Source: Patescibacteria group bacterium
Lineage (GTDB): Bacteria; Patescibacteriota; Minisyncoccia; UBA6257; HR35
Direction: 5' to 3'
NCBI GenBank assembly: GCA_030549845.1
Contig: JAUQQN010000001.1
Location: 133,668 to 197,667 of the forward strand
Length of the DNA stretch: 64,000 bases
A program made the position numbers and the translations under genes. The notes beneath the pieces were generated by a model that was given only the letters and a program-made list of their open reading frames with translations, searched no databases and had not been told where the DNA came from. Position 1 is the stretch's first letter; every line of letters starts with the position of its first letter. Below, piece by piece: positions 5,831 to 59,127 of this stretch.

Positions 5831-5903
5831 GCGGCGGTAGTTCAGTGGTAGAACGTCTGCCTTCCAAGCAGAAGGTCGCGGGTTCGAATCCCGTCCGCCG
5901 CTC
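5831..5903 (+). tRNA. tRNA-Gly (anticodon TCC)
   Basis: GCGGCGG...CCGCCGC acceptor stem, D-loop AGTTCAGTGGTAGAAC, anticodon loop CTTCCAA, T-loop GGTTCGAATCC; GC-rich against an AT-rich background. Confidence 0.85.
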
Positions 5904-14503: not shown

Positions 14504-15793
14504 TTAATCTCTAAAAACAAATTCCAAAATTTCGTTCTGGCCTGGATCTGGACACCAATTAAGGGAATAAATACCTACTTCATTATCACCAACTGCTCTT
14601 CCATCAGAATAAACTCCATCAGTAATATAGTTACAATTAAATGGCCATGCTAAATGCTCTATAGTGCCATTATTATCTGTACCTCTGCTTGCTGTGCCGC
14701 CCTCCTTCCCACTAATCCAATTACCTGTTGCCGGGTTATATTTAATGTGAGGTATGATAGCTGCTTTATTAAACGAGCCTTTCCATATTTCATAATGACT
14801 TACTGTACAACCATCTTCATCGCCACAAAGTTCATGAAAGGCTGACATATCAAGTGGAATCGTAGTTTTAGTAAGTAATTTATGTCTTCTTACATAACTT
14901 ACTAATTTATTATTAACATATTTGTAGATATCTTCAGCTCCTTCAATTTTTTTAGTGTTTTTTGTAAGATTACTTGGAAGACTAGGAACAGTAAATACTT
15001 GGTCAGGGTTAGTATTTGGATCAGCTAAAGGAACATCTACTTGCATCCACCAATTTCTGTTACAGCCATAGTTATTCCCTAAAAATTGTCTTCCGGTTAA
15101 CCTCACGTCATTAGGTGTATTCCTATAAATTGCCCAAGGAAGGCCTAACCTACCTCCACCTCCATATCCTTTGCCTCCTGTTGCTCCAGTTATTACTACT
15201 GGTTCATCTTGAGCTACTTTGTCCCAATCCCACTCTATTATTAAGAAACTTTTAGTATCATCAAAGTAATAAGGTCCGCAGCTCCATTCTCCACCACACC
15301 TAAAATTAATATACCAATTTCCTCCCTCGCTATTGTCTAAATCAATATGAAAGCCAGACCCTCCTCCATTTAAATTAGTAAATCTTATCTGCCCTTTATT
15401 TCCTACTTTTTTATAAATATATAACCCAAACTCCTCGGCACATATAGGGCCATTAACATTGAATATAGCTCTATTTAAACCTCTCACAACAGTGTAATTT
15501 CCTCCACCTGATTTTTGACTATCTACATACTCTTTTGTTGCAACTTGTTCTGGCGGTGAGTTTTCAGAAGGAGTTTGAGTAAAAAGAGGAGCTAGTTCAA
15601 ATTGATTAGTTCTACCAGCAATTTTTTTCAAAAACTTAAATCCTTCGTTTGCTGTTTTAAATACTGTGTATTTTTGTTGGGTTTGTTGTGCTTTGATTTG
15701 AGGAAGTGGGATTGTTAATATAAGTAGGGTTAAGAAAGAAAGTAAGATTCCTGTAAAGATTCCTATAAGTATTTGCTTTTTATTGTTTTGCAT
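14504..15793 (-). CDS. secreted/surface hypothetical protein (N-terminal signal anchor, Gly/Trp/Cys-rich)
   Basis: Hydrophobic N-terminus MQNNKKQILIGIFTGILLSFLTLLILTIPLPQIKAQ; no known domain; AGTTATCCACAA motif lies 62 nt upstream. Confidence 0.45.
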   Translation of the reverse strand: MQNNKKQILIGIFTGILLSFLTLLILTIPLPQIKAQQTQQKYTVFKTANEGFKFLKKIAGRTNQFELAPLFTQTPSENSPPEQVATKEYVDSQKSGGGNYTVVRGLNRAIFNVNGPICAEEFGLYIYKKVGNKGQIRFTNLNGGGSGFHIDLDNSEGGNWYINFRCGGEWSCGPYYFDDTKSFLIIEWDWDKVAQDEPVVITGATGGKGYGGGGRLGLPWAIYRNTPNDVRLTGRQFLGNNYGCNRNWWMQVDVPLADPNTNPDQVFTVPSLPSNLTKNTKKIEGAEDIYKYVNNKLVSYVRRHKLLTKTTIPLDMSAFHELCGDEDGCTVSHYEIWKGSFNKAAIIPHIKYNPATGNWISGKEGGTASRGTDNNGTIEHLAWPFNCNYITDGVYSDGRAVGDNEVGIYSLNWCPDPGQNEILEFVFRD

Positions 15794-20320: not shown

Positions 20321-20471
20321 AGAACACTAGGAAGGGCTGCCGAGTTCGGAGACCTCCGGGGAGGTGACGGGCCCCCGGAGAAAGGCAGCCCTTCCTATGT
20401 TATATATAGAGGGAGGCATGGGATTTTATATCTTATTTTAATTCTTCCCCTGCCTCCCTTTTTATTTTTTC
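20321..20471 (+). ncRNA. candidate small structured RNA, identity unresolved (SRP/4.5S-like is one possibility)
   Basis: Sharply GC-rich region: a 12-bp perfect outer stem (20330..20341 / 20384..20395) encloses an 8-bp inner stem (CTCCGGGG/CCCCGGAG). A second hairpin AGGGAGGCATGGG...CCCCTGCCTCCCT (20410..20459) followed by a T-tract (20460..20471) acts as terminator. Weak similarity of CCGGAGAAAGGCAGCC to the SRP domain IV consensus CCGGAAGGAAGCAGCC. Confidence 0.35.
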
Positions 20472-20727: not shown

Positions 20728-21054
20728 ATGAGACGTTTATTTTTATTTTTAATTTTCGCAACGGCGTTTGTCGGTGGCTGCGGAGGGGGACATAAGCCCC
20801 CCTCCGTTGAGACGTTGCCTCCGGCTCCAACCACAAAGGTGGAGTCGGGGCCTATTGTGGGCTGGTGGTGGGTAACCATCACCAGCCATACGACCCCTTC
20901 CCGGATAGAAGTTATCCGGGAAGGGGTAACATTGTTTAATTTTTTAGAGACCCGGGAGGTCAAAATCGACCTCCCGGAGGGTAATTACCTCATCCGGGTG
21001 ATATACCCGGATGGGGGCTCCTGGGAGGGAGAGCTGACTCTCCCTCCCAAATAG
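20728..21054 (+). CDS. small GC-rich lipoprotein (108 aa; lipobox FVGGC)
   Basis: ATG at 20728 after AGGAGGTG; signal peptide MRRLFLFLIFATAFVGG|C; mature part is beta-strand-like. The annotated ORF start at 20686 is upstream of the RBS-supported ATG. Mature-region GC is far above the genome background. Confidence 0.6.
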   Translation: MRRLFLFLIFATAFVGGCGGGHKPPSVETLPPAPTTKVESGPIVGWWWVTITSHTTPSRIEVIREGVTLFNFLETREVKIDLPEGNYLIRVIYPDGGSWEGELTLPPK

Positions 21055-21066
21055 TTTTTTCCACAG

Positions 21067-21092
21067 CCCCACCCTTTCGGGTGGGGTTTTTT
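21067..21092 (+). terminator. rho-independent terminator (CCCCACCC-TTTC-GGGTGGGG + T6)
   Basis: Perfect 8-bp GC stem, 4-nt loop, TTTTTT tract, 12 nt after the lipoprotein stop codon. Confidence 0.75.
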
Positions 21093-21113
21093 ATTCCACT
21101 TTTATTTGACTTA

Positions 21114-21181: not shown

Positions 21182-24100
21182 TTATTCTATCCAAATATTA
21201 ACTTTTCCAAAATTTTCATATTCGAATTCCCTTTCCAATTTAAATTTTTTAGAAACTCCAAATTTAAGGTTGCTTATATTTGTTTCTTTTTTAATTCTTA
21301 ATAGATTTTTTGAAATAATGTTTTTTAGGTTTTTAGGCAATAACATGGAAACATTTATAGGAGTTATAGGGATTAATCCTAAATCTTGTCTTAAATCTTG
21401 AATATATCTTATAAAATCATTTACTATTCCTTCTTCTTTAAGCTCTGGTGTTATTTCTTTATTAAGCCAAACATAAATAGGAGAGTCTGCAAATAAATAG
21501 TTTTCTTTATTTTTAGGCTCTCCAATTATTACTTTTTTAACATTTACTTCTTCTTTGATAAGTTCCAAATATTCTTCTTCTATTTTTTCTCCTAAATAAA
21601 CTTCTTTTAAGGGTTGCCTTACTTTTATTCCATTATTTTTTCTTAGCATCAAAATTTCTGATGTTATTTCTCTTACTTTTTTCATTTCTTTAAGTATTTC
21701 TTTTTCTTTTGTTGACAAATCTTTAGGGGGTAAAACTTTTTCTAAATGAACACTTATTTCTACCTTTTTTCTATCTTTCATTTCATTTTTTATCTCATGA
21801 TAAAGAAACTCACTAAAGAAAGGAGTTATTGGAGCAGAAATTTTTGCTATTTCAAAAAGATATTCTTCTAACTTCATCATAGCGATTTGTATTTCATTTT
21901 CATTTTTAGGTCTTTGGAACCTTCTTCTGCTCCTTCTTAGCCACCAATGAGATAAATCTTGAACTAAATTTACCAGTTCTCTACTTGCTTTTGTTGGATT
22001 GAAGTTATACAAAGATTCATAAACTATTTTATAAGCTTCTTTTAATCTCACATCAAACCATTTATCAATTATTTCTTTACTTTGATAATTTCTAATTTTT
22101 AATTTCTTTGGTTTTCTGTACATTCTATAAAAGTTAAAAATATTCAAAAGCAGATCAAAGTAATTTCTCTTTAGGTTTATAAGCTCTTCTTCTATGAATC
22201 TTTTATTATCAGCAGATTCACTTACATAAACAAAGTAAAACCTTAAAAGATCAGCTCCGTATTTTTCGATGGCCTCCATAGGATCTACAACGTTTCCCAA
22301 TGACTTGGACATTTTTCTTCCCTCCTTATCTAAAACTAAGCCCAAAGAGACTACATTTTTGTAAGTTTCCATTTTCTTTATCAAATACCCTATAACTAAC
22401 AAAGTATAAAACCAACCCCTTGTTTGATCTATTCCTTCCACAATAAAATCTATAGGGAATAAAATTCCTTCATCTATTTCTTTTTTATTTTCAAATGGAT
22501 AATGAAAAGATGCAAAAGGAACACACCCTGAGTCAAACCAAATATCTGCTAAGTCTTCTATTCGTTCTTTTAATCCTCCACATTTACATTTCCATTTAAA
22601 TTTATCCACATAAGGCCTATGAATATTTATTTCATTATTTTCATCTCTTGGCAAAATTAAAAGTTCAATTTCTTTATATTCCCCAGGTTCGAAGTTAAAT
22701 TCTTCATTTTCTGCTGTTTGTTTTTTAGAAAGCCCTTGCATTTCTCCACAAAGAGCCCATAAAGGATCCTGATGTGATACTATTAAGATTGTTTTTCCTT
22801 CATACTTTTCTTCCAAATCTAAAATTACTGATATCATTCTTTTTCTTACATCATCCAAACTTTCACCATTTTCTGGGGCTTTGAAATACTGATCATATTG
22901 ATCTTCATAAAGCTTATCATATTCTTTTATTGATTTACCGTTTAATACACCAAAATCTATTTCTCTTAACCTTAGATCTACAATAATCGGAACTCGTAAA
23001 ATATTAGAAAGTATTTCTGCAGTTTGCTTCGTTCTTAAAAGTGGTGAAGTTACAATAAAGTCGATATTCTTCTTCGCTAACTCTTTAGCCACCTTCATTA
23101 TTTGTTTTTCTCCATTCGAGGTCAATGGGTTAAAGAAAACTTCAGGGTAGGAAGATAGTAATTCTTTTACATTACTTATGGCTTCTCCATGCCTTAAAAG
23201 AATGTATTTATTTTTTGATTTGAAATGTTGAGCAAGCTCCTTTAAACTCCCTATAACTTCTATTGAACCACAGCTATTACATTTCCATATAGGAAGAGGT
23301 ATACCCCAAACCCTTGTTCTTGATAGATTCCAATCTTTTCCTTCCTTAAGCCATTCATAAAATCTACCACTTCCAATTTCTTTTGGATACCAATTTATTT
23401 TTTCGTTAATTTTTAATAGCTTATCTTTAAATTTAGATACTTTAATCACCCAATTTTTTGTTGAATAATAAATAAGCGGTGTTTTACATCTCCAACAATG
23501 GGGATAATCGTGTTCATATCCAGTTAAATTTGCATAGAGGATTAAATTTCTTTCTTTTAAGTCTTCAACAATATATGGATCTGCATCTTTAAAAAATAAA
23601 TTATTTATTTTACTACTAATAAAAGCTGGTTCATCAAAATTAAAAATTCCTGACTCGTTTATTGGATTTATTAGAGGAAGATTATATTTTTTACTTAATT
23701 CAAAATCCTCTTCACCAAATGCAGGAGCTATATGAACTATTCCTGTACCTTCGTCTTCTTTTACGAATTCTGCTAAATAAACTTTAAATGCATTTTCATA
23801 ATTTTCTATATTTTCTGGAGGATAAAGAGGTTCATATTCTAAACCTTCTAGTTCTTTGCCTTTTATTTTTTTAATCTCTATTCCTTTAAATCCCTGAGGA
23901 AGCCTTAAAGATATTAGAATTTCTTCATTTAAGTCAAATACTTTATATTCATACTCTGGATGTATTGCTAAAGCTATATTTGAAATTAACGTCCATGGGG
24001 TTGTTGTCCAAACTAAGAAATAAATTTGTTTTTCAGAAAATTCTTCTAAAAAGTGTGGAATGTTTTTCAACTTAAACTTAACATAAATATCAGGATCTAA

Positions 24101-24688
24101 AACTTTTTTATAAGCATCAACTTGTCCTACTTCGGCTTGAGAAAGGACGGTTTCGCATCTTGGGCAATAAGGAAAAACTTTATATTCTTCTTTTAAGTAC
24201 CCTTGATCATAAATCTTTTTAATAATCCACCAACAGGATTCCATGTAAAATGGATCATAAGTGATATAAGCATTTTTATGATCAATCCAAAATCCCATCA
24301 TTTCATCCATTTTCTCCCATTCATTTTTATATTTCATAACAAGCTCTTTACATTTTGCATTAAATTTATCAATTCCATATGAAAATATATCTTTTTTTGT
24401 TTTAAATCCTAAAAATTTTTCAGTGGCAACTTCTATAGGAAGTCCGTGCGTATCCCATCCTGCCCTTCTTTCAGCATATTCACCAATCATTGTTCTAAAT
24501 CTTAAAATAATATCTTTATAAACTCGGGTAAGAAAATGCCCGATGTGAGGTTTATCATTAGCATACGGAGGACCTTCAACAAAAACAAATCTTTTATTTT
24601 TTATATTTCTTTTTAAGCTTTCTTTAAAAATATTATTTGATTTCCAAAAATTTATTATTTTCTTTTCCAATTCACTTAGATTTAGCAT
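21182..24688 (-). CDS. ileS: isoleucine--tRNA ligase with an inserted histidine-phosphatase (PGAM-like) domain
   Basis: HIGH-region PPYANDKPHIGH, GWDTHGLPIE, WGIPLPIW, WFDSG, KMSKS (RKMSKSLGNVVDP). A ~195-aa insertion (aa ~495-690) carries LLRHGEAISN and VSHQD motifs of the histidine phosphatase superfamily; it sits between CNSCGS and CKCGG. 1168 aa. Confidence 0.85.
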   Translation of the reverse strand: MLNLSELEKKIINFWKSNNIFKESLKRNIKNKRFVFVEGPPYANDKPHIGHFLTRVYKDIILRFRTMIGEYAERRAGWDTHGLPIEVATEKFLGFKTKKDIFSYGIDKFNAKCKELVMKYKNEWEKMDEMMGFWIDHKNAYITYDPFYMESCWWIIKKIYDQGYLKEEYKVFPYCPRCETVLSQAEVGQVDAYKKVLDPDIYVKFKLKNIPHFLEEFSEKQIYFLVWTTTPWTLISNIALAIHPEYEYKVFDLNEEILISLRLPQGFKGIEIKKIKGKELEGLEYEPLYPPENIENYENAFKVYLAEFVKEDEGTGIVHIAPAFGEEDFELSKKYNLPLINPINESGIFNFDEPAFISSKINNLFFKDADPYIVEDLKERNLILYANLTGYEHDYPHCWRCKTPLIYYSTKNWVIKVSKFKDKLLKINEKINWYPKEIGSGRFYEWLKEGKDWNLSRTRVWGIPLPIWKCNSCGSIEVIGSLKELAQHFKSKNKYILLRHGEAISNVKELLSSYPEVFFNPLTSNGEKQIMKVAKELAKKNIDFIVTSPLLRTKQTAEILSNILRVPIIVDLRLREIDFGVLNGKSIKEYDKLYEDQYDQYFKAPENGESLDDVRKRMISVILDLEEKYEGKTILIVSHQDPLWALCGEMQGLSKKQTAENEEFNFEPGEYKEIELLILPRDENNEINIHRPYVDKFKWKCKCGGLKERIEDLADIWFDSGCVPFASFHYPFENKKEIDEGILFPIDFIVEGIDQTRGWFYTLLVIGYLIKKMETYKNVVSLGLVLDKEGRKMSKSLGNVVDPMEAIEKYGADLLRFYFVYVSESADNKRFIEEELINLKRNYFDLLLNIFNFYRMYRKPKKLKIRNYQSKEIIDKWFDVRLKEAYKIVYESLYNFNPTKASRELVNLVQDLSHWWLRRSRRRFQRPKNENEIQIAMMKLEEYLFEIAKISAPITPFFSEFLYHEIKNEMKDRKKVEISVHLEKVLPPKDLSTKEKEILKEMKKVREITSEILMLRKNNGIKVRQPLKEVYLGEKIEEEYLELIKEEVNVKKVIIGEPKNKENYLFADSPIYVWLNKEITPELKEEGIVNDFIRYIQDLRQDLGLIPITPINVSMLLPKNLKNIISKNLLRIKKETNISNLKFGVSKKFKLEREFEYENFGKVNIWIE

Positions 24689-25169
24689 TTTTATAATTCT
24701 TTATAGCTTTCTCTATTAATTTTTCTGCTTCTTCTTTGTTTAACCAATCTTTTATCTTTACCCACTTACCTGGTTCTAATGTTTTGTAATTTTCAAAAAA
24801 GTGTTTAATTTGATTTTTATAATTTTCTGGAATTTCACTTATATCATTATACATCCCCCAAAAAGGATCTATTTTTTCTTTTGGAACTGCTATTACTTTT
24901 TCATCTTTTCCAGCCTCGTCTTCCATTTCTAAAACTCCTATTGGTTTTACTCTAATCAAACTACCTGGCAATATACTTTCATAAGATAATATTAAAACAT
25001 CTACTGGGTCTCCATCATCTGCTAAAGTTTCTTCTATAAATCCATAATTGAAAGGATAATACATTGCTGTATATAGAAATCTATCAACTCTTATTCTATT
25101 TTTTTCTTTATCTAACTCATATTTAACATTGCTCCCCTTTGAAATTTCAATTAAAACATCTATTTCCAT
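24672..25169 (-). CDS. ppa: inorganic pyrophosphatase (family I)
   Basis: Family I PPase fold and Asp-rich metal motifs (DDGDPVDVLIL); 165 aa. Confidence 0.85.
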   Translation of the reverse strand: MEIDVLIEISKGSNVKYELDKEKNRIRVDRFLYTAMYYPFNYGFIEETLADDGDPVDVLILSYESILPGSLIRVKPIGVLEMEDEAGKDEKVIAVPKEKIDPFWGMYNDISEIPENYKNQIKHFFENYKTLEPGKWVKIKDWLNKEEAEKLIEKAIKNYKNAKSK

Positions 25170-25171
25170 TT

Positions 25172-26332
25172 TTAGTTTTCACCTGAAGATTCACTAATTA
25201 CGGAATCTTCAGGGTTACTTTTTATATCTATTTCTTCTATATCTGCTATTCCTCCTTCTATTTCTTTTTCTGGTTCTTCTATTAATCTTACATCTATTCT
25301 CCATCCAGTTAATTTTGAGGCTAATTTTATGTTTTGTCCATTTTTTCCTAAAGCCACAGGTAATTGATCTTCGGTTACATAAAGCTTAATTGTTCTTTTT
25401 GGCAAAATTTCTCCACTTACAACCTTTGCTGGAGAAAGAGCATTCATCACATACTGAAGTGGATCATCAGAATATTCTATTATGTCTATTTTTTCTCCAT
25501 TCAACTCATTAGAAATACTTAAAACTCTTGCGCCCTTAGGGCCTATACAGGCACCAACAGGATCAATTCCTTGAACATTTGATTTTACAGCTAACTTACT
25601 TCTTACACCAGGAATTCTTGCGACTCCTTTAATTTCTATTATTCCTTCTATTATCTCTGGAATTTCAAAAGAAAAAAGTGCTGAAACAAAAAGAGGATTT
25701 GCTCTTGAAAGATATACTTCAACTAACCCTGGTTTTTTCTCAACGCCATAAACATAAAACCTCATTCTATTTCCAATCTTATAGAATTCGTTAGGAATTG
25801 CTTCTGTTTTAAACATTATTCCTAAGGCCTTAACTAAATCAACATATACAGCTCTACTATCTATTTTTTGTATAGTACCAGAAACTATTTTCCCTTCTTT
25901 TTCCTTAAATTCATTGTATATATTTTCTTTTGTAATCTCTCTAACTTTTTGAATAATTATTTGCTTTGCTGTTTGGGCAGCAATTCTACTAAACGCATCT
26001 TTATATTCGAGCGGCATTCTTATTTCATCTCCTGGCTTAGAATTTGGGTTAATTTTTTGAGCTTCTGAAAGCAAGATATGTTTATATGGGTTAAATTTGA
26101 CTACTTGATTTTCTACATCTTTATCATCAACTACTGTTTTAACTAAATAAAATTCTATCCTTTTACCAGTAGGATCAATTTTTCCTTCAACTTTTTCTTC
26201 TTTGTGCCTATAATCTTTTTTATAAGCAGCAGCTAAGGCACTTGCTAAAATTTCTTTGACCTGATTTTCATCTAAATCTCTTTCTTCAACTATTTGATCT
26301 ATTAAGCTTTCTAATTGTTTAATATTTATCAT
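25172..26332 (-). CDS. nusA: transcription termination/antitermination factor NusA
   Basis: N-terminal NusA domain, S1 and two KH domains (IPGVRSKLAVKS..., PVALGKNGQNIKLASKLTGWRIDV); 386 aa. Confidence 0.85.
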   Translation of the reverse strand: MINIKQLESLIDQIVEERDLDENQVKEILASALAAAYKKDYRHKEEKVEGKIDPTGKRIEFYLVKTVVDDKDVENQVVKFNPYKHILLSEAQKINPNSKPGDEIRMPLEYKDAFSRIAAQTAKQIIIQKVREITKENIYNEFKEKEGKIVSGTIQKIDSRAVYVDLVKALGIMFKTEAIPNEFYKIGNRMRFYVYGVEKKPGLVEVYLSRANPLFVSALFSFEIPEIIEGIIEIKGVARIPGVRSKLAVKSNVQGIDPVGACIGPKGARVLSISNELNGEKIDIIEYSDDPLQYVMNALSPAKVVSGEILPKRTIKLYVTEDQLPVALGKNGQNIKLASKLTGWRIDVRLIEEPEKEIEGGIADIEEIDIKSNPEDSVISESSGEN

Positions 26333-26372: not shown

Positions 26373-27581
26373 ATGAATAAAAAAGCGCAAATAGAAGACA
26401 TCCTCTTATTTTTTGCTTTGGTAATAATAATATTTTCTGCTTTTATATATTATTTTTATTTTAAAACAGGAAAGGTACCAGTCTTAAAACCAAGAAAAGA
26501 AATAAAGCCCGCTGAAAAAAGCGTAATTCCTCCTGGTATTTTTTTCCCTAAAAAAGAGAAGGTTCCCTTTTTAAATATTAAGAAAGTTTCCGAAGCAAGT
26601 GTTTTTAAAATCAATTTAGGAACCACTACAAAACCAAATAAAAATCTAGAAACTTCAATAAAACATAAATATAAAAACTTAAATAATTTAGAAACTAATG
26701 AAGTTGAGTTTGAATTAGAGGGTAAAAATTTAAAAAATCCTAATGAAAAAATCCATTTTGCTTATTTATTAATACCTATTGAAAATAACTGGAAGGTTCT
26801 AAAATCCAATAAATTAAAAATAATCCTTCCTAAAAAACCACAAATTTACATTCTTTTAGTGAGTTCTTTAAATGAAAAAAATGAATATGACCCCAGTCCT
26901 TATGCTCTTATTTTTTCTGTGAATGTTTCTAAATATTTTAATGATATTAAAATTACGTCTCTTCAAAATAGAAACATTATAAGAATCAAAAATTTTTCGC
27001 AAAATACTATTAACATAACAAATTGGAAAATAGTGTCTTCATTAGGAAATTTTGTGATACCACAAGGAGTTGAATTTGTTGAACCTTCTGGTAATTATAT
27101 AAAAAAAGATATCATATTAAATCCTGGCGAGGAAGCAAAAATTATAGCATCATCTTCTCCATTAGGTTTTAGTTTTAAAATTAACAAGTGCTTTGCTTAT
27201 TTTTTAAAATCAAAGCCGTCAATTAAAAAATTTCTAGATAACATCCCAAATATTTGCGACAAATTCTCAAAAGAAGAGCTTTTAGAATTAAGAAAAGGAA
27301 AGTATAGCTTAAATTGCATTTTAGTTCTGGAAAAAGCTGGATGCACTGGTATACAAGAAAAAGATTATACTCTAATAAAAAATGATATATCCTGTTTGAA
27401 TTTAATAAATGCCAGATTTAATTACCAAAGTTGCTATGAAAAAAATAAAAATAATATTGATTTCATTCAAAAAAATTGGCATATATTTATCCCCACAAAT
27501 TTCTTTTACTATCCAAGGTATGAAGAAATTAGGTTATTGGATGAGAATGGTCTTTTAGTTAATAAATATATTATTTATTGA
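26373..27581 (+). CDS. hypothetical membrane-anchored extracytoplasmic protein
   Basis: N-terminal TM (ILLFFALVIIIFSAFIYYFYF), 402 aa, several Cys in the C-terminal half, no motif. Confidence 0.4.
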   Translation: MNKKAQIEDILLFFALVIIIFSAFIYYFYFKTGKVPVLKPRKEIKPAEKSVIPPGIFFPKKEKVPFLNIKKVSEASVFKINLGTTTKPNKNLETSIKHKYKNLNNLETNEVEFELEGKNLKNPNEKIHFAYLLIPIENNWKVLKSNKLKIILPKKPQIYILLVSSLNEKNEYDPSPYALIFSVNVSKYFNDIKITSLQNRNIIRIKNFSQNTINITNWKIVSSLGNFVIPQGVEFVEPSGNYIKKDIILNPGEEAKIIASSSPLGFSFKINKCFAYFLKSKPSIKKFLDNIPNICDKFSKEELLELRKGKYSLNCILVLEKAGCTGIQEKDYTLIKNDISCLNLINARFNYQSCYEKNKNNIDFIQKNWHIFIPTNFFYYPRYEEIRLLDENGLLVNKYIIY

Positions 27582-29026: not shown

Positions 29027-29917
29027 CTATTCACGAATCTGTCCAGGTTCACATCGAAGACCTTGGCCAGAGCATACAGAAGTACTAGTATTCACCCATC
29101 TGTTTCGAGTTTCATCATAATATTGGCAAAAACCGAGAAAGCATCTAAGTCTAAGAGGAGGACTTACCGTGATAGTAGAAGTATTTGAAACTTGTTGAGT
29201 ATTTGATTTTAAATATAATGAATAAGTGCCTGTAGGAACTCCATTTAAACTTAAAGTTCTTGTTACAAAAATATTATTAATATTATTGATAAAGTCATCA
29301 GATCGAATTGAAGGAAAGAGTGTAAAACCAGTTGAGTATGGAGAAATGCTAGGATCCGCCGGAACTGGTAAATTTGAAGGACAATAAGCCTTATTGCTAT
29401 AAATTGTATAAGTTATAGTAGAAGTAGATTGTGTAGTAGTTGATTCAGGTTCAAGTTTATAATACCAGCCTCTATTACTTGCTGGTACTACAAAAAAGCT
29501 TGCTGAAGCAGATTGACTGTCTTTTTTATAAGTAATAGTTACTGTTGAATATTGTGATCCTGGATTTGTAAATACTCCTTCTATTATGCAATCCGTACTA
29601 GAGACATATCCTCCTATTTGATCACATTTTCCAGAAGTTGAATATTGATTTATAGTTAAACTTAGATTTCCACCGCTCCCACCCACTAATTTTATCCTAA
29701 AAAGAGTTCCGCTTGCTACAGTAGATTTAATATTTGTTTTATAAATATCATCTGAGATTGCATTTTCTATTTCAATCCCTTGATCATTAGGAGAAGAAAG
29801 TGCATAAATTTCTATACCAATGCCATTTGCAGCTTTAGCAAAATAAAAATTTCTATAAATTAAGAAAGTAGTTATCAAAAGTAAAATTCCTAAAATGATA
29901 TAAATTTTACTTTTCAT
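29027..29917 (-). CDS. secreted Ser/Thr-rich hypothetical protein with C-terminal Cys cluster
   Basis: Signal peptide MKSKIYIILGILLLITTFLIYRNFYFAKA; AGTTATCCACAA motif 42 nt upstream. Confidence 0.45.
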   Translation of the reverse strand: MKSKIYIILGILLLITTFLIYRNFYFAKAANGIGIEIYALSSPNDQGIEIENAISDDIYKTNIKSTVASGTLFRIKLVGGSGGNLSLTINQYSTSGKCDQIGGYVSSTDCIIEGVFTNPGSQYSTVTITYKKDSQSASASFFVVPASNRGWYYKLEPESTTTQSTSTITYTIYSNKAYCPSNLPVPADPSISPYSTGFTLFPSIRSDDFINNINNIFVTRTLSLNGVPTGTYSLYLKSNTQQVSNTSTITVSPPLRLRCFLGFCQYYDETRNRWVNTSTSVCSGQGLRCEPGQIRE

Positions 29918-32839: not shown

Positions 32840-33123
32840 TACTTAAAGAAAGAAATTAGGATAGCTTGAATAGAAAAGGATGCGATTATTAACACTAATC
32901 CTACAATAATTAGTGGAACTTCTTCTTTAAATCCTTTCCCTGGATTTACCATATATTTAAAGCCAGAATACATTAAAATACCTATACCACTTACCATTCC
33001 TATCCAATAAAAAATATTAATTACTCCAATGAGTTTACAAATAAAATAATTTATGCCTTCTTGCTGAGCACAACCTATTTCCCCTCTAAACCTAATTGCT
33101 TGGGCAAAAACTAAGCTTATCAT
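32839..33123 (-). CDS. small two-helix membrane protein, pilin-like hairpin module family, paralog 4
   Basis: 94 aa; ...GCAQQEG...IFYWIGMVSGIGILMYSGFKYMVNPGKGFKEEVPLIIVGLVLIIASFSIQAIL. Confidence 0.45.
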   Translation of the reverse strand: MISLVFAQAIRFRGEIGCAQQEGINYFICKLIGVINIFYWIGMVSGIGILMYSGFKYMVNPGKGFKEEVPLIIVGLVLIIASFSIQAILISFFK

Positions 33124-34772
33124 AAACCTAATATTTGCTTAATGATATTCCAACCACTACCTCCAGGTGTATAAATTTTCCCTGTTTCTATATCGAAGAC
33201 TTGACTAAACGGCTTATCTGGAAATTCTGAATTTGTAATTTCAACTTCACATTGGCCTTTATAATCATAAAATTGAATATATAAAAATCCTAATGTATTA
33301 CCTGGAGGAGAAATATATTTAGGAACTCTATATAGAGATTTTCCCTTTTCATAACTCAAGGTTATTTGGAAATCTCTGTTAAACAGGTATAAAGAAGTTG
33401 CCTTTGTTTTATCAAAATTAAAACTTGAAACACTTGTTCCCCTCATAACCCCATATAATGTACAATTCCCATTTTTTTTAGGAGTAGGTTGAACTTCATA
33501 TTCTATATACATTGAAAAAGGAGGTTGATATATATTCCTTTGCAAAACTGTGATTCCTAATAACTGCTCTAAAGCATCTTTCAAGTTATCGGGCATTTCT
33601 ACCCTTATATATTGAGAAGCATAAATTATAAGTTTGTCTCCTTTTATTGTTAATTTTGGTAGCTCCTCAACAACAACTTCAACTTTTGGTCGATATTGAA
33701 TATCAAGATAGGTAATATTCAAATTACAGTTATTTGATTGGAATGCAACTCTTACAAAATCACCTGGCTCAATATGGTTCCCTAGCTCAGCTTCTATATA
33801 TTGGGAACCAAAAATATTAGGTTCTATTTTTGAAAACAAATTTTTACCTTTTGTTTTATTGTAAAAAGTAAGCGTTAATTCACATGTATCCTTAGAAGAA
33901 ACAAAAACAAAAAATCTTCCATTTTCATCTATTTTTGCAGTATTTGTATCTATTATTAGAGTACCAGAAGCAGTGCCACTAGGTAAAATAGATTGAGTAG
34001 TATCTGGAATGGGTTGAGTAATATCTGGAATAGGTTGAGCAGTGTCTGTAGTAATTGGACCTAGTTCAGAAGGTGGTTGTAATGCTAAACCACCTGTTAA
34101 CCATCTTTCTACTCCAATAACAATCGTAAATGAAACAATTCCTACTACAATACCTATTATCCCCCATTGGACTCTTTTATGAACATCACTAACTTGGCTA
34201 GGTTTTGTAATATATAAAATGCCAGCCCACATTAAAAACAAAACCCCTAAAGCTAGAGATAAGGTATATAATATCCTTAAGCCTTTATCAAAAAGAAACA
34301 ACAAACATTGACCAATTCCTCTTTCGCATTCACGAATAGTAGGAAATCCTCTTAGATATTCTGATGGAGCTATATATAATTTTTCCAGCTGACCATTTTC
34401 TATTTGTACATTCAATACTTTAAATCCTCGGTATTGTTGTAAACTAGGAGGTGGATCTATTAAAATTAATTCTGCTGCCTCTATTATTAAGTTACTCCAA
34501 TTTCCGTAAGTCTCTCTAACTGCATCATTGACATTTATGTTAGGATCTGTACTTTCAATGCTATTACCTCTAACCTCGAATGTTCCTTCACCATATCTAT
34601 TATTCAAAAGCTCAGCCATTTTTTCTCTTATCAAACGCCTTAAACCTTCATCTACATTTATTCCCTGCACTGTCTTTATGCCCCATTGAAAAGGATTAAA
34701 ATATTGAGTAACTTGAGCAAAAGTGATATTACTGAATATTAGCAAAATAACTAAAAGTAAAATTTTTTTCAT
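33120..34772 (-). CDS. secreted 550-aa protein with embedded pilin-like hairpin module (aa ~165-225) and QPIPD(I/T)TQ tandem repeat
   Basis: Signal peptide MKKILLLVILLIFSNITFA; internal segment GIGQCLLFLFDKGLRILYTLSLALGVLFLMWAGILYITKPSQVSDVHKRVQWGIIGIVVGIVSFTIVIG matches the paralog module; 21-nt tandem DNA repeat at 33999..34040. Confidence 0.45.
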   Translation of the reverse strand: MKKILLLVILLIFSNITFAQVTQYFNPFQWGIKTVQGINVDEGLRRLIREKMAELLNNRYGEGTFEVRGNSIESTDPNINVNDAVRETYGNWSNLIIEAAELILIDPPPSLQQYRGFKVLNVQIENGQLEKLYIAPSEYLRGFPTIRECERGIGQCLLFLFDKGLRILYTLSLALGVLFLMWAGILYITKPSQVSDVHKRVQWGIIGIVVGIVSFTIVIGVERWLTGGLALQPPSELGPITTDTAQPIPDITQPIPDTTQSILPSGTASGTLIIDTNTAKIDENGRFFVFVSSKDTCELTLTFYNKTKGKNLFSKIEPNIFGSQYIEAELGNHIEPGDFVRVAFQSNNCNLNITYLDIQYRPKVEVVVEELPKLTIKGDKLIIYASQYIRVEMPDNLKDALEQLLGITVLQRNIYQPPFSMYIEYEVQPTPKKNGNCTLYGVMRGTSVSSFNFDKTKATSLYLFNRDFQITLSYEKGKSLYRVPKYISPPGNTLGFLYIQFYDYKGQCEVEITNSEFPDKPFSQVFDIETGKIYTPGGSGWNIIKQILGL

Positions 34773-40627: not shown

Positions 40628-40713
40628 GGAGGGGTGCCGGAGTGGTCTAACGGGACGGCCTGGAGAGCCGTGGCCCTTTTAGGGTCTCGTGGGTTCGAAT
40701 CCCACCCCCTCCG
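40628..40713 (+). tRNA. tRNA-Ser (anticodon GGA), long variable arm
   Basis: GGAGGGG...CCCCTCC acceptor stem, anticodon loop CTGGAGA, long variable arm GGCCCTTTTAGGGTCTC, T-loop GGTTCGAATCC. Confidence 0.85.
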
Positions 40714-42939: not shown

Positions 42940-44574
42940 ATGATTGAAGACATCTATAAGGAGTATGAATATCCAAGAAGTTTAGATCTCTTTAGAAAAT
43001 TTATAGCAGAAAAGCAAGAAAGAATAAGAAGGGATATTGAGGTTTTAATTGAACAAAAGAAAATTACAAAGGAGAGATTTGAAAAAATTAAAGAAGAAAT
43101 AAGAAAGGTCTTTGGAGAGAACATAGAATATATTTCTACCACTTTACATCTTAGACCAAGGGCCATAGATTATTTAGAATTAGCTCAAAAAAGAATATCT
43201 CAAGCAATAGAACCTAATAAAGTTTTTTATTATCCTGTATATTATCAAGATTTTGAAAGTGAAAGACCAGATAGAATATACTTTGGAAGTTTTTCTTTAT
43301 CTTTATGTGATATCATTCCTAATTTAAAAAAGAAATTTGAAACTTCTCTTGAATTTCATATAGAACTAATGGAATATTTAAAAAAGGAAAATTGGGAAGA
43401 CGAAGTTAAAAATAACTTGGAGAATTTTCTTAGTAAAGAGTTTTCTGGTTTTAAGAAAAATTTAAGGGGTATACTTATTGAGGAAGCAAAATGTGTGGTA
43501 ATTTCCATTTTAAGGGACTATAAAAAATTTTTTGAAGAAATAGGCTTAGTAGATATAGAAGAGAAAATTAACAACATCAACACAAATTTAGCAAATATTT
43601 TTTTAAACAATTTTGAAGCTCTTGCACCACTTTTAGAAACACTTGGAATAAGCAAAGAAGATTTAGAAAACATAAAAGAAAGAAAAAAGAAAGCTATAGG
43701 CGAATTTCTTTTTCTAGTATGCATTTTAGGAGAATTAACTCATATAGGAGCTGAGTATGGTAAATTTGATGATATAAGAATAAAATTGGGTTTGATGGAT
43801 GAAAAAGAAAGGAAAGAGGAAGCTTCTCAAGAAAGATTTAGATTTTTTGAAGTTGAAGGAGAAGGATCTGAAAGTGATACATTAAGATTTCTTTTTGATG
43901 AGGAGGGAAGTAAACTTTTGATTCAAACAGCAAAATATATGGGACACGAAGAATCAAGATGGTCTCCTATTTCTGAAAAATTGATAAAAAGGATAAGAAT
44001 TATTGATTTTTACCTAAAAGTAAAAAGTAGAGAAAAAGAGATTAGAGAAATAATAGAAAATTATCTTGAAAATTCGATTTTAAACTGGGAAGGTTTTGTT
44101 GAATTATTAGAATTAGTTAATTATTTCGCTCACTTAAAAAACGAAGAAAGGGCACAATTGGATGTAACTTTAAAAGAAATCCAAGAAAATAACGTGAACA
44201 AAAAGTTAAGAGAGTGGATTAATTATTATAATAAGAAAATTAAAGAAAAAGATACAAGTCTAAGATTTTTAATCCATGAGGATATTTTTAAAAGAAAAAT
44301 TTTATGGTTTGTTTTTAAAAATTATATAGAAGGAGAGTTTATGAAAATTAAAGTAATCTCTGAAGATCTTTTTACAATATTTCTAAGTCCTTCAAATTTA
44401 GAAAAATTTGAAACTGAAAAATTATTGGAAGAAATAACAAAACCTCGTTTTTATGGTTTACAACTTCCTCTTCGATTACCAAAATTAAACAAAGAGGATC
44501 TCATCAATTTGGTTAGCTTATTTACAGGGGATGAAAAAATCCAACCTTTTCTTGATAGCGTTCTTAAAAAATAA
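42940..44574 (+). CDS. hypothetical cytoplasmic protein (544 aa)
   Basis: Long helical, Lys/Glu-rich ORF with no motif I recognise. Confidence 0.4.
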   Translation: MIEDIYKEYEYPRSLDLFRKFIAEKQERIRRDIEVLIEQKKITKERFEKIKEEIRKVFGENIEYISTTLHLRPRAIDYLELAQKRISQAIEPNKVFYYPVYYQDFESERPDRIYFGSFSLSLCDIIPNLKKKFETSLEFHIELMEYLKKENWEDEVKNNLENFLSKEFSGFKKNLRGILIEEAKCVVISILRDYKKFFEEIGLVDIEEKINNINTNLANIFLNNFEALAPLLETLGISKEDLENIKERKKKAIGEFLFLVCILGELTHIGAEYGKFDDIRIKLGLMDEKERKEEASQERFRFFEVEGEGSESDTLRFLFDEEGSKLLIQTAKYMGHEESRWSPISEKLIKRIRIIDFYLKVKSREKEIREIIENYLENSILNWEGFVELLELVNYFAHLKNEERAQLDVTLKEIQENNVNKKLREWINYYNKKIKEKDTSLRFLIHEDIFKRKILWFVFKNYIEGEFMKIKVISEDLFTIFLSPSNLEKFETEKLLEEITKPRFYGLQLPLRLPKLNKEDLINLVSLFTGDEKIQPFLDSVLKK

Positions 44575-55692: not shown

Positions 55693-57424
55693 TTTTACGT
55701 TTTTAGAAATTTTAATAACCATTGTTTTTATAGTGCTTTTAGGGTATTTTATATACGGAGCTTTTATAAATTTTTTAAAAATGACAACATCTTTAAGGCT
55801 TACACTTCAGGCTTTAAATATTTTAGAAAGTGAATTAGAAATAATAAGAAATATGAAGTATGAAGACATTGGTATAAAAGATGGCTATCCAAGAGGTAAA
55901 CTTGAAAGAAAAAAATATATAAGTTTAGGCAACTTAAACTTTGTGGTTTCTTATTATATAAGAAATATAGATGATCCTTTTGATGGCACGGTTACTTCAA
56001 CTCCTCAAGATTTAGCTCCTGCTGATTATAAGCTGGTTGAACTAGAAATAGAATGCCTCAATTGTGGGGTCAAATTTAAACCTCAAAAATTAACAACCTT
56101 AGTAGCGCCTAAAAATTTGGAAGTGACTACAAACAATGGATCTTTATTTATTAAAGCGATAAACTCAAAAGGTGAACCTATACCACAGGCTAAGGTTATT
56201 GTATTAAATAAGCAAATAAATCCACCTATTTTAATTGAAGATTATACAAATAATGATGGCATTTTACCATTAATAGATATACCTACAGGAACTAATGCTT
56301 ATGAAATTACAATTAATAAAGATGGATATTCAACAGAAAAAACTTATACTCCAGGTGATCCAGAAAACCCCAACCCTCTCAACCCTCATGCAACCGTAAA
56401 AGAGCAAACTTTAACCGTAGTTACATTAGCTATAGATAAGTTAAGTAATTTGAGAATAAATACAAAAGATAAATTCTGCAGACCCATAGGAAATATTAAT
56501 TTAAGAGTCAGTGGAACAAAATTAATTGGTAAAAATCCTGATGTTATAAAATTTTCAACCACTACTTCTACAAATATTGATGGCACAAAATTTTTACAAA
56601 ATATAGAATGGGATGAATATAATTTTTCTATCTTAAGCAATGGATACATATTAAGAGGCAGCAACCCTATTTGGCCCCTAGTTGTTCTTCCAAGTACTAC
56701 TAAAGATGTTGATTTAATTTTAATACCAAAAGAAACCACCTCTTCTAATTTATTAATAGAAGTGATTGATTCAAATAGATTACCTATTAAATTTGCATCA
56801 GTTACCTTATCTAGTGGTAACTATAGTTCAACATTAATTACAAATACAGAAGAGTATTATGAAAATAACTGGTTAGAAAATTATTCTCAAAAATCAGAAA
56901 ATATAGAAATTGATAGTAATGGTTATATAAAATTAAAATATTTGACAGATGGTTATCCAACTAATACACAAGAGTGGTTAATATCTAATACTATTGATTT
57001 TGGATCAAGAACTGATTTATTAAAAATAAACTGGGATGGAGATGAAGCTTCACAAACAGACATAAAATTACAAATTGCAGTAAATAATGATAACTCTACT
57101 TGGAATTTTATAGGACCAGATGGCACCTCAAATTCATATTTTGAAGAAAAAGAAATTTCCAGTCTTTCTTTATTTACAAATTTTAGGTATTTAAGATATA
57201 AAGTTTATTTACAAACTTTTGATCCTCAACAAACGCCTATTTTTAAATACATCAATTTCCAGTTTTCTTCGGATTGTTTACCGCCTGGTCAGGTTTTATT
57301 TAAAAATTTAAATATAGCTACATATCAATTAAAAGTAGAAAAGGAAGGCTATCAAACATTTTTATCAAATATAGATTTATTAGAAAGTTTTAAACAAATT
57401 ATTGTAAACCTCAGCCCGCAATGA
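55664..57424 (+). CDS. large prepilin-like protein (class III signal-like N-terminus SNLS|FTFLEIL; ~587 aa)
   Basis: ATG at 55664 (the ORF track starts at TTG 55628); FTFLEILITIVFIV matches the prepilin N-terminal methylation/helix motif; overlaps the pilC 3' end by 29 nt. Confidence 0.5.
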   Translation: MNYQKKSNLSFTFLEILITIVFIVLLGYFIYGAFINFLKMTTSLRLTLQALNILESELEIIRNMKYEDIGIKDGYPRGKLERKKYISLGNLNFVVSYYIRNIDDPFDGTVTSTPQDLAPADYKLVELEIECLNCGVKFKPQKLTTLVAPKNLEVTTNNGSLFIKAINSKGEPIPQAKVIVLNKQINPPILIEDYTNNDGILPLIDIPTGTNAYEITINKDGYSTEKTYTPGDPENPNPLNPHATVKEQTLTVVTLAIDKLSNLRINTKDKFCRPIGNINLRVSGTKLIGKNPDVIKFSTTTSTNIDGTKFLQNIEWDEYNFSILSNGYILRGSNPIWPLVVLPSTTKDVDLILIPKETTSSNLLIEVIDSNRLPIKFASVTLSSGNYSSTLITNTEEYYENNWLENYSQKSENIEIDSNGYIKLKYLTDGYPTNTQEWLISNTIDFGSRTDLLKINWDGDEASQTDIKLQIAVNNDNSTWNFIGPDGTSNSYFEEKEISSLSLFTNFRYLRYKVYLQTFDPQQTPIFKYINFQFSSDCLPPGQVLFKNLNIATYQLKVEKEGYQTFLSNIDLLESFKQIIVNLSPQ

Positions 57425-59127
57425 AGTTAAAAAAGTTTTTTTTAATTTTTTTTATTTTAATACTTCCGATTTTTTGCAAAGCTGAAAAAGTTTTTGAGTA
57501 TTTTTCTCATTCTCCGCGAACTACTAATAAGCTAGATTTAAATTTAGTAGAAGAAATTAAGCAAGAAATAAAAATATTTGATGATAATCTAAGTAAAATT
57601 TATCTTTGGATAGATAACCCGGGTACAGCTAATGAAGTGAATATTCAACTTTTTGAAGAAGACCATTTATTATTCAGTAAGACCATCAATATTCCCCAGG
57701 TAAAAGGAGGTTATTTTGGTTATAAGTTTGGAATAGATTTAGGAAAGAATTTAAAAATAGAAAGCGGAAAAAATTATCATTTATCAATAAAAAATTTAAC
57801 CAAAGATGAAATGTATATCTACTATACAAGCAAGATAGAGATTTTACAAGGAGAAGAAAAAGAAGGCATTTTACCAATCTCCTTAGGTAAATTTTTGATA
57901 AATGGAAAAGAGTATGCTTATTCTTTGAAAATAGCGCTTGCTGAATCTTTGGAACAAGATGTGCCTAAATTATTTAATCCACAAATAGAAATTGAAAGTC
58001 CTTATAAAGTTTATCTTTTATTCAATTCAAACGAACCGATAAAATATAAAGTTATCTATTGGGATGTGAATAGAAATGAAACTTATTTAATCCCTTCAAA
58101 TCCTTATTTAGAAAATTGTTTTATAGAAACGAAAAAATGTAAAATAAGTATTTATACGAATCATAACACTTATTATAAATTCCAAATTTCTATAATAGAT
58201 TATTGGGGCAATTTCAAAACTTATGAAGGGGAATTTGTAACCCCCTTAGATCCTACTATTTCTACTTCAACAATTTCTACTTCAACAATAAAAATTAATG
58301 ATACATTACCCCCTCAAATTTCTAATTTTCAAATAAAAGAAATAACTTCCAATAATATAATAGTCTCTTTTGAAACAAATGAATTTGCACTTAGTTCTCT
58401 TAAAATTTTTTATAAAGATACAGGTGTTATAGTGATGGAAATAAGAAATAGTATGTTTAATTTATATCATGAAATAAGCGCATTGAATTTACTTTTCCCT
58501 AACTTAGAATACGAAGGAGTAGTTTATGTAGAAGACATATTTAAAAATAAAAATGAATATAAATTTAGCTTCAAAACTAAAGAAGGTAAAACTTCTCAAT
58601 CTTTAGATAAATTTTTATCTCAACCTAAAATTTTAGAAATTAATGTAATAAATGAAGGAATTGAATCTAGCTTAAAAACCCCAGATATTGAAATTAATTA
58701 CGACCAAAATTTAAATAAAATGAATATCAAAACAGATTCCAATAATTTAAAAATTAATTTCATTAAAAGACCAGAGGTTTCTATTTTTAGTTATTCTATC
58801 AAAGAAGGAAGTTATGATTTGGATTTAAATATTTTCTCTCCTGGGGTTTATAATTACCTAGCTTATCAAGAGCTCCGGCCTAACATAAAACAAATTCTAA
58901 AATCTGGTGAAATTGAAATAAAAAGCAAAGAAATTAAGGAAATTTCTTCGGAAAAAATAGAAACAAAAAATAATACAGAAATTAAAATAAAAGAGGGTTC
59001 TCCAAAAATAATTCAACCTTTGCCTGCTTCAGAATCTGTTTCATCTCATAAAAAAATTATTTCAATTATCGGAATAATTGTGATTTTAAGTTTGTTATTA
59101 ATCTTATTTTTGATAAAAAGAAAATGA
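57421..59127 (+). CDS. cell-surface protein with signal peptide and C-terminal TM anchor, ISTST tandem repeat
   Basis: MKLKKFFLIFFILILPIFCKA signal; C-terminal IISIIGIIVILSLLLILFLIKRK; 15-nt tandem DNA repeat near 58258..58290. Confidence 0.4.
   Translation: MKLKKFFLIFFILILPIFCKAEKVFEYFSHSPRTTNKLDLNLVEEIKQEIKIFDDNLSKIYLWIDNPGTANEVNIQLFEEDHLLFSKTINIPQVKGGYFGYKFGIDLGKNLKIESGKNYHLSIKNLTKDEMYIYYTSKIEILQGEEKEGILPISLGKFLINGKEYAYSLKIALAESLEQDVPKLFNPQIEIESPYKVYLLFNSNEPIKYKVIYWDVNRNETYLIPSNPYLENCFIETKKCKISIYTNHNTYYKFQISIIDYWGNFKTYEGEFVTPLDPTISTSTISTSTIKINDTLPPQISNFQIKEITSNNIIVSFETNEFALSSLKIFYKDTGVIVMEIRNSMFNLYHEISALNLLFPNLEYEGVVYVEDIFKNKNEYKFSFKTKEGKTSQSLDKFLSQPKILEINVINEGIESSLKTPDIEINYDQNLNKMNIKTDSNNLKINFIKRPEVSIFSYSIKEGSYDLDLNIFSPGVYNYLAYQELRPNIKQILKSGEIEIKSKEIKEISSEKIETKNNTEIKIKEGSPKIIQPLPASESVSSHKKIISIIGIIVILSLLLILFLIKRK

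Follow-up and report, generated by a model that had tools for sequence, protein, structure and literature searches.

A histidine phosphatase nested in a Patescibacteria isoleucyl-tRNA synthetase and its counterpart in an argS–phosphatase–ileS operon

Aminoacyl-tRNA synthetases are among the best-studied enzymes, and nested domains in them, such as editing domains, have each revealed a function. The ileS gene of a Patescibacteria group bacterium (assembly GCA_030549845.1, contig JAUQQN010000001.1) raises the question of what a histidine phosphatase is doing inside an isoleucyl-tRNA synthetase (IleRS), and how it came to be there. The gene lies at 21182–24688 on the minus strand of a 64-kb stretch of this contig, called the window here. 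It is a single uninterrupted open reading frame (ORF) that encodes a type-2 IleRS (IleRS2) of 1168 amino acids with a nested phosphatase. We found that the inserted phosphatase belongs to a Patescibacteria family that is seen with IleRS only, as an adjoining gene or as a nested domain, and never as both.

A phosphatase in the CP3 loop of a type-2 IleRS

The inserted segment was delimited by a phmmer alignment to the Thermus thermophilus (Tt) IleRS structure 1ILE (E=4e-216). Query amino acids 3–486 correspond to chain residues 9–477, and 688–1012 to 489–812. Query amino acids 487–687 (22628–23230, minus strand, as are all ileS features below), which comprise a complete histidine phosphatase with short linkers, therefore replace just 11 residues of Tt IleRS. 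These 11 residues lie between the Tt cysteine pairs C461/C464 and C502/C504, with which the query pairs CNSC (C470 and C473; amino acids 470–473, 23270–23281) and CKC (C701 and C703; amino acids 701–703, 22580–22588) align. Both pairs are invariant in 121 fused sequences. CP3 connects CP2 with the second half of the catalytic fold and carries a zinc-binding motif (PMC7191050). The initial annotation of the locus had placed the insert between the two cysteine pairs of a zinc knuckle, in agreement with the alignment. It had assigned this knuckle to the catalytic core, whereas the knuckle is part of CP3, a peripheral subdomain, and not of the Rossmann core (PMC7191050). Its coordinates, 22619–23206 (amino acids 495–690), located the segment correctly, with each end off by about 8 residues. 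Its estimate of ~250 amino acids between WGIPLPIW and DIWFDSG was accurate: the spacer from WG.P.P to WFDSG has 250 amino acids in the query, as compared with 53–67 in ~45 other bacterial and archaeal IleRS2 and ~83 in Bacteroidota. The GC content is ~28%, without a break over the insert.

The insert matches Pfam His_Phos_1 (PF00300) at amino acids 496–657 (22718–23203), and the predicted fold agrees with this match. The profile was found in the whole protein (E=5.7e-39) and in the segment alone (E=2.5e-40), with 134–139 bits against a gathering threshold of 21.7. The RHG motif (amino acids 499–501, 23186–23194) contributes R499 and the presumed nucleophile H500, and this arginine and histidine are present in 121/121 fused sequences. 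The phosphate-pocket arginine R552 (in SPLLRTKQTA; 23033–23035) is conserved in 119 of the 121, the other two having an arginine two residues later. The presumed general acid E576 (in RLREIDFG; 22961–22963) is glutamate in 100 and aspartate in 21 of these sequences, while the second active-site histidine, H639 (22772–22774; in IVSHQD, with SHQD at amino acids 638–641), is present in all 121. G608-E609 and R617 are almost invariant as well. In an alignment of 14 family members, all but one of them standalone proteins, the equivalents of R499, H500, R552, E576, and H639 likewise do not vary. Judged by this conservation, the nested phosphatase is probably active.

An AlphaFold2 (AF2) model of the region (amino acids 462–722) had a predicted local distance difference test score (pLDDT) of 93.3. 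Foldseek matched this model to 4ij6, 1h2e, 6s2q, and 9mmh (E ~1e-13), with target-normalized template-modeling (TM) scores of 0.75–0.78. Scores were 0.75–0.80 for PspA, PhoE, mycobacterial GpgP, and HFP overall (0.76–0.78 for PspA and PhoE) and about 0.55–0.65 for dPGM and BPGM chains. A full-length model built with 53 homologs had a mean pLDDT of 91.2 and a predicted TM score of 0.84, and 10-residue blocks across the insert were mostly at pLDDT 94–98, with a minimum of 88. The insert is predicted to fold as its own globular domain, with both ends spliced into one short CP3 loop between the four cysteines.

The profile match and the modeled fold, with its PspA and PhoE neighbors, agree with the annotation's assignment of the segment to the branch-1 histidine phosphatases. 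The nearest solved proteins by sequence are PhoE/YhfR (E=5e-17), PspA, and CobC. The insert resembles PhoE/YhfR (1EBB, 1H2E), PspA (4IJ5), CobC, GpgP, and HFP (9MMH) in fold, in the R-H-G/R/E/H set of residues, and in the length of ~190–210 amino acids. However, its identity to these short phosphatases is 22–27%, and it widely misses their equivalog cut-offs (PspA, 86.4 versus 350; CobC TIGR03162, 95.4 versus 162.9; SixA TIGR00249, 34 versus 74.5). The insert also has a flap motif, SS[WY]PE..NPLT, where QG..D.PLT is usual in short phosphatases, and unlike PhoE, PspA, CobC, GpgP, and HFP, it is found within a synthetase or in one operon with it. With dPGM/GpmA it has the superfamily and the predicted phosphohistidine chemistry in common, but dPGM chains are ~50 residues longer. 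The best NCBIfam match of the insert is the archaeal dPGM model (NF038349 dPGM_arch), although at 118.8 it falls below the cut-off of 225; TIGR01258 (36.8 versus 81.7) and GpmB NF002901 (76.5 versus 261) are missed too. A true phosphoglycerate mutase is excluded by the missed dPGM cut-offs, the length of ~190 rather than 230–250 amino acids, and the lower TM scores to mutases. The description of the insert as PGAM-like in the initial annotation thus holds at the level of the superfamily only, because the mutase and named-phosphatase models all score below cut-off. By its sequence, the insert should be classed as a branch-1 histidine phosphatase, predicted to be phosphomonoesterase-like, and as the ortholog of no named enzyme.

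The IleRS part is a complete type-2 enzyme: it has a synthetic site, an editing domain in CP1, and C-terminal domains of type 2, and it is predicted to charge tRNA-Ile normally. NCBIfam TIGR00392 (ileS) scores 825.2 bits against a cut-off of 621.4, in two stretches on either side of the insert. Pfam identifies tRNA-synt_1, divided in two by His_Phos_1, along with Anticodon_1 and DUF5915. The translation contains the HIGH signature (amino acids 48–51, 24536–24547), the WTTTPWT motif of the CP1 editing domain (amino acids 227–233, 23990–24010), and the KMSKS signature (amino acids 792–796, 22301–22315); alignment and translation both place WFDSG, with which the catalytic fold resumes in its second half, at amino acids 717–721 (22526–22540). 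Residues W227, T228–T230, P231, W232, and T233 are invariant in 53 homologs, and the editing region aligns with 1WK8 and 1UE0, chains of the editing domain of Tt IleRS in isolation. All motifs quoted in the initial annotation are thus present, and its description of the synthetase motifs and editing domain as intact is supported by the translation.

Foldseek matched the full-length model to the IleRS2 structures 8c8v, 8c8u, and 1ile and to yeast 8wnd, with target-normalized TM scores of 0.79–0.87 against solved IleRS2. Anticodon_1 and DUF5915 at the C-terminus, together with 8c8v and 8c8u as top structural matches, identify the type-2 organization, in which a zinc-binding domain at the C-terminus is lacking. 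Tt IleRS (1ILE/1JZQ) and Priestia megaterium IleRS2 (8C8U–8C9D) have the same family, domain order, HIGH, KMSKS, CP1, and type-2 C-terminus as the query, and the four-cysteine CP3 motifs of the query and Tt IleRS align residue for residue. The difference lies in CP3, where the Tt and Priestia enzymes have 11 residues and the query a phosphatase module of 201 residues; none of the solved IleRS structures carries a further catalytic domain at this place. The closest named relatives of the query come from Parcubacteria and Patescibacteria metagenome-assembled genomes.

PF00300 is present in 120/120 of the best query homologs (43–99% identity; from NCBI, ENA, JGI, and Logan, on contigs of up to 923 kb). 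Independent projects have yielded well over 100 protein clusters with the fused architecture, and closed or near-closed genomes such as CP066690.1 (923 kb) are among the sources. Public fused sequences are annotated merely as 'isoleucine--tRNA ligase' or 'class I tRNA ligase family protein'. IleRS sequences were also ranked by their N-terminal 470 amino acids only, which kept the insert from biasing the ranking, and PF00300 was found in 58 of the 150 nearest cluster representatives at 50% identity. Among the 121 sequences, the insert has a mean pairwise identity of 0.46, as compared with 0.53 in the IleRS core and 0.42 in the C-terminal domains. Pairwise identities of insert and core are correlated (r=0.87). 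This is the pattern expected of a co-inherited, selected domain. Four more distant fused relatives (L005 from Patescibacteria REEB413, P0308, P0312, and P0351) have kept the insert and lost one or both cysteine pairs, and the knuckle is therefore dispensable for holding the phosphatase. An assembly artifact or pseudogene is ruled out by the uninterrupted ORF, the even GC content, the 120/120 homologs, and the invariant catalytic residues, which bears out the initial interpretation of a domain insertion. An apparently 'split' ileS in Yanofskybacteria (L007) is due to a masked run of N in the stored record and is not biological.

Free-standing counterparts and other insertion points

A search with the insert alone returned, as its best 120 matches, standalone proteins of ~189 amino acids with 40–53% identity. 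The few that are named by source are all from Patescibacteria, including Portnoybacteria and Staskawiczbacteria. The insert is 43–49% identical to six of the standalone proteins (P0121, P0128, P0130, P0163, P0209, and P0222) and 23% identical to a Firmicutes PhoE-like outgroup. Inserts of two fused relatives (P0078 and P0061) are 41–43% identical to the query insert, and the standalone proteins are thus equally close. The standalone proteins align with the insert in one collinear stretch, which runs from their own residue ~4 (MKLNNKYYILRHGEA...) to the C-terminus, and the flap motif SS[WY]PE..NPLT is common to both.

All seven standalone contigs that were looked up (7/7) have the order smpB/argS–phosphatase–(0–3 small genes)–ileS–recO. 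The downstream gene was ileS in 5/5 cases tested, matching TIGR00392 in one unbroken stretch and free of an insert. In the fused loci whose flanks are long enough (L003–L007, L090 from Sungiibacteriota CP066690.1, and L091) the order is argS–ileS[phosphatase]–recO, and the free gene is absent. We then scanned metagenome contigs with the family alignment, which gave at least 80 loci; the locus counts in the rest of this paragraph are among the 80 loci listed. The phosphatase is nested in IleRS in 29 of these and standalone in 51. Forty of the 51 standalone genes are flanked by both argS and ileS, seven by one of these with the contig ending on the other side, and four have no room on either side. 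The phosphatase therefore adjoins argS and/or ileS in 47/47 informative standalone loci, always on the same strand. Spacing is tight: the aligned part of the phosphatase begins a median of 11 nucleotides after the argS stop, and that of IleRS a median of 18 nucleotides after the phosphatase stop. Of the gaps between phosphatase and IleRS, 77% are ≤60 nucleotides. IleRS proteins encoded beside a standalone phosphatase have 19–49 residues where the query has 215. Free and nested phosphatases occurred together in 0/80 loci. The relatives also bear on whether the insertion is lineage-specific, a point raised by the initial annotation: it is not confined to the query genome but is one of two IleRS–phosphatase layouts widespread in Patescibacteria.

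Among 73 ileS loci outside Patescibacteria, which served as a control, three had a phosphatase-like ORF within ~6 kb, and none had it nested. To us, 3/73 looks like about the chance rate, and we rejected a bacteria-wide association of ileS with phosphatases. Urinicoccus massiliensis (L011, 2896–6606) has a PhoE-like gene 4 nucleotides past ileS2, and a Clostridia metagenome-assembled genome (L008, 1794–6648) has the order ileS–lspA–rluD–phosphatase; both phosphatases are ~23% identical to the query insert.

The small genes between the free phosphatase and ileS are varied. At one locus (L081, 6652–7819) these are an RHH/ParE toxin-antitoxin pair and an HD_3 phosphohydrolase, and at another (L087, 6570–7160) a CYTH triphosphatase-family protein. 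Those wedged in at two further loci (L086, 6594–7433; L088, 6663–7289) have no family match. A NUDIX gene repeatedly occurs upstream of the argS–phosphatase–ileS block in relatives.

The CP3 loop is not the only site at which a phosphatase is nested. Among 144 full-length IleRS sequences, 84 have no histidine phosphatase, 57 have it in the CP3 loop, two after HYPF, and one after KMSKS. The two insertions after HYPF lie between '...WFESGSMPYA..HYPF' and 'FPADFIAEGLDQTRGWF' (P0374, PCI25629.1; and P0389/P0355), and both are labeled Candidatus Peregrinibacteria. The insertion after KMSKS (P0278; L092, 8001–11822; GCA_021733565.1, JAKFZD010000009.1, 268 kb) is in the loop at the beginning of the anticodon-binding domain. 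A search with the P0278 junction gave no further case of this type; its matches were ordinary IleRS fragments, which mostly resembled those of Chloroflexota, along with two fragments of the CP3 type. The synthetase portion of P0278 is itself most similar to Chloroflexota IleRS fragments, and its host may therefore not be a Patescibacterium. A further protein, P0391 (1484 amino acids; JGI and ENA; clustering with P0373 and P0390), carries a pair of histidine phosphatase domains in CP3. The first occupies the site used in the query, and the second, of the ordinary RHGETDWN type, is at the position of the second cysteine pair. The phosphatases of P0374, P0355/P0389, P0278, and P0391 all keep their catalytic residues. 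No N- or C-terminal fusion of the phosphatase to IleRS was seen in the 144 IleRS sequences or the 80 loci, even though the free gene typically ends a few nucleotides before ileS.

Fused and unfused forms interleave in neighbor-joining trees both of the phosphatase and of the insert-masked IleRS, which are crude on deep branches. In the phosphatase tree, the smallest clade that holds the fused sequences also takes in 34 standalone ones. Fitch parsimony on the IleRS tree gave ~26 changes (bootstrap 23–29), a figure too crude on deep branches to count events. From this patchy distribution we conclude no more than that one layout has been converted into or exchanged for the other more than once.

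Possible function and rival explanations

The reading we favor, with a probability of about 0.6, is that the protein is an enzyme with two active sites, in which the histidine phosphatase works with IleRS on an IleRS-linked phosphomonoester and became nested from a neighboring gene. In this mechanism, the phosphoryl group would pass to H500, with R499, R552, and H639 holding the phosphate and E576 serving as the acid. The two enzymes would act jointly on a phosphomonoester tied to the job of IleRS, as suggested by the gene fusion and the conserved operon, and tethering would have been selected for closeness to the synthetase body. Mutual exclusivity, the 47/47 adjacency, and the several insertion sites together make up a classic signature of proteins that work together, and because the family is found with IleRS only, the phosphatase does not appear to be a random passenger. 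CobC and HFP, a riboflavin-pathway phosphatase, have ribose- or ribityl-5'-phosphates as substrates. Phosphohydrolase genes recur near ileS, namely ppa in the window and HD_3, CYTH, and NUDIX genes at related loci. Because of these relatives and neighbors, our leading guess for the substrate is a nucleotide-like 5'-phosphomonoester that the synthetase makes or binds; a phosphate carried by IleRS itself or by tRNA-Ile would rank second. Nesting may have come about when the phosphatase gene was duplicated in tandem together with the 5' part of ileS and the redundant outer copies were then lost, a route that would also account for the differing insertion points.

Several observations weigh against this reading. 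About 40% of fused sequences have a hydrophobic residue in place of the asparagine of RHGxxxxN, and the insert scores below cut-off with every named NCBIfam phosphatase or mutase model. In the operon, the phosphatase is as near to argS as to ileS, and the kept gene order could in part reflect common descent within one class (Paceibacteria) instead of selection. The insertion after KMSKS comes from a single contig. As for the history of nesting, the crude neighbor-joining trees settle neither the number nor the direction of CP3 fusion events, and tblastn detected no phosphatase remnant and no partial ileS duplicate in the argS–ileS gaps of fused loci.

A rather unlikely but serious alternative is that an ordinary metabolic phosphatase, acting on phosphoserine, a sugar phosphate, or phosphomonoesters in general, was absorbed into a tolerant loop during genome streamlining and is linked to IleRS by co-expression only. 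The nearest solved relatives (PhoE, PspA, GpgP, CobC, and HFP) are indeed broad or metabolic enzymes, and the archaeal dPGM model is the best NCBIfam match, albeit below cut-off. Patescibacteria genomes are reduced, CP3 varies in length among IleRS, and argS is in the same operon, all of which would suit such an absorption. What speaks for the joint enzyme instead is that the family was never found away from ileS (47/47 informative standalone loci and the 29 nested ones) and has been nested at several IleRS sites in different lineages, whereas in the loci scanned there was no nesting in the equally adjacent ArgRS and no N-terminal fusion, which would be easily reached. The relocated ileS genes of the window and of a relative (L089) carried the phosphatase along merely through nesting, which is neutral between the two.

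Less probable still is a phosphatase acting on protein or on RNA ends that protects or regulates the synthetase system, either by stripping IleRS of an inhibitory phosphate or by freeing damaged tRNA-Ile of a 3'- or 2'-phosphate so that it can be charged. HipA-type kinase toxins phosphorylate and inhibit other synthetases, and the histidine phosphatase superfamily includes the phosphoprotein and phosphohistidine phosphatases SixA, PGAM5, and Sts. The insert has a weak match to SixA (TIGR00249, as above), its second-best NCBIfam match is the RNase H/acid phosphatase PRK07238, a fusion to a nucleic-acid enzyme, and tethering in cis at several sites of the catalytic body would fit IleRS or its bound tRNA as a substrate. 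Against this idea, the nearest solved relatives use small molecules, and the conserved neighborhood contains no kinase toxin, the RHH/ParE pair of L081 not being a kinase. We also know of no member of the histidine phosphatase superfamily that is an RNA 3'-phosphatase. A chimera, frameshifted pseudogene, or inactive decaying relic has a negligible probability, as the general prior that metagenome assemblies can be chimeric is all that favors it against an intact ORF of even composition, many independent assemblies, invariant catalysis, a domain-like rate of change, and a confident AF2 model.

A bolder form of the joint-enzyme reading, which we regard as possible but doubtful, is that making or safeguarding Ile-tRNA in these bacteria involves a dedicated phosphatase step, and that strong selection for proximity led to the partner enzyme being built into IleRS several times independently. 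The independent builds would be those in the CP3 loop, the loop after HYPF, and the loop after KMSKS, along with the second, different phosphatase in CP3. Candidate roles for the step are to clear a nucleotide-type by-product at the synthetic site, an inhibitory phosphate on IleRS, or a blocking phosphate on tRNA-Ile. Such a step, if true, would constitute a new accessory activity of aminoacyl-tRNA synthetases, comparable in kind to the gain of an editing domain.

The CP1 editing domain is likewise a hydrolytic module nested in the catalytic body of a class Ia synthetase (PMC13114784), and the class Ia host is thus known to tolerate and exploit nested catalytic modules. CP1 of IleRS, ValRS, and LeuRS is universal and ancient and hydrolyzes aminoacyl esters, whereas the module described here is lineage-restricted, is a phosphatase that also exists as a free-standing gene, and is located in CP3. 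Going by model names, NF040702 ('isoleucine--tRNA ligase, N-acetyltransferase domain-containing'; query 293 versus 1999) is a precedent for a second enzyme domain in IleRS, and PRK07238 ('bifunctional RNase H/acid phosphatase'; query 96 versus 326) for a branch-1 phosphatase joined to a nucleic-acid enzyme. Both differ from the query in partner domain and layout. A full-text search of the literature found no description of a synthetase–phosphatase fusion or of an IleRS–phosphatase operon, and neither was found in a 2026 preprint on IleRS domain evolution or in a 2026 survey of domain insertions. A multidomain synthetase with a nested accessory enzyme is therefore known; a phosphatase nested in a synthetase and an IleRS-linked phosphatase operon appear to be new. 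The upstream operon gene and its nested counterpart form a rare natural series within one syntenic block, useful for studying the origin of domain insertions and, in class I synthetases, for the engineering of sites that tolerate insertions. The translation machinery of Patescibacteria is known to be unusual, and the nested phosphatase adds to it a lineage-wide feature of an essential gene.

Surroundings of ileS in the window

In the window, ileS lies among housekeeping genes and is preceded by ppa, encoding inorganic pyrophosphatase (24672–25169, minus strand; PF00719, E=2.2e-61), the 3' end of which overlaps the ileS start by 17 nucleotides. The nusA gene (25172–26332, minus strand) is 2 nucleotides upstream of ppa. 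Because of this overlap and short gap, nusA–ppa–ileS is probably one operon. The pairing of a pyrophosphatase with a synthetase that produces pyrophosphate is suggestive. Downstream of ileS are a small lipoprotein ORF, dprA, and gyrB, and the order nusA–ppa–ileS–dprA–gyrB is repeated in the relative L089.

The lipoprotein ORF (20728–21054, plus strand; 108 amino acids) has a lipoprotein-type signal (MRRLFLFLIFATAFVGGC...) and a good ribosome-binding site. It has ~50% GC in a genome of 28% GC and may be recently acquired DNA; it has no Pfam match and no credible Rfam match. An RNA family at this GC-rich spot was considered and rejected, as the best Rfam score was 39 bits for His_leader (gathering threshold 49) and the spot reads as a lipoprotein gene. 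The ORF is followed by a terminator-like GC hairpin with a run of T (~21065–21095). Two GC-rich inverted repeats just past dprA (20327–20397 and 20404–20465) have sub-threshold, chance-level Rfam scores and are probably terminators or a small structured RNA.

Large ORFs that match no Pfam family are typical of Patescibacteria genomes. In the window they are found at 29027–29917, 14504–15793, and 33120–34772 on the minus strand and at 42940–44574, 57421–59127, and 59687–61078 on the plus strand. The ORF at 26373–27581 (plus strand) has only a weak, sub-threshold match to the Lamin Tail Domain. Two tRNA genes, at 5831–5902 and 40628–40713 on the plus strand, are the sole matches at Rfam gathering scores in the 64-kb window.

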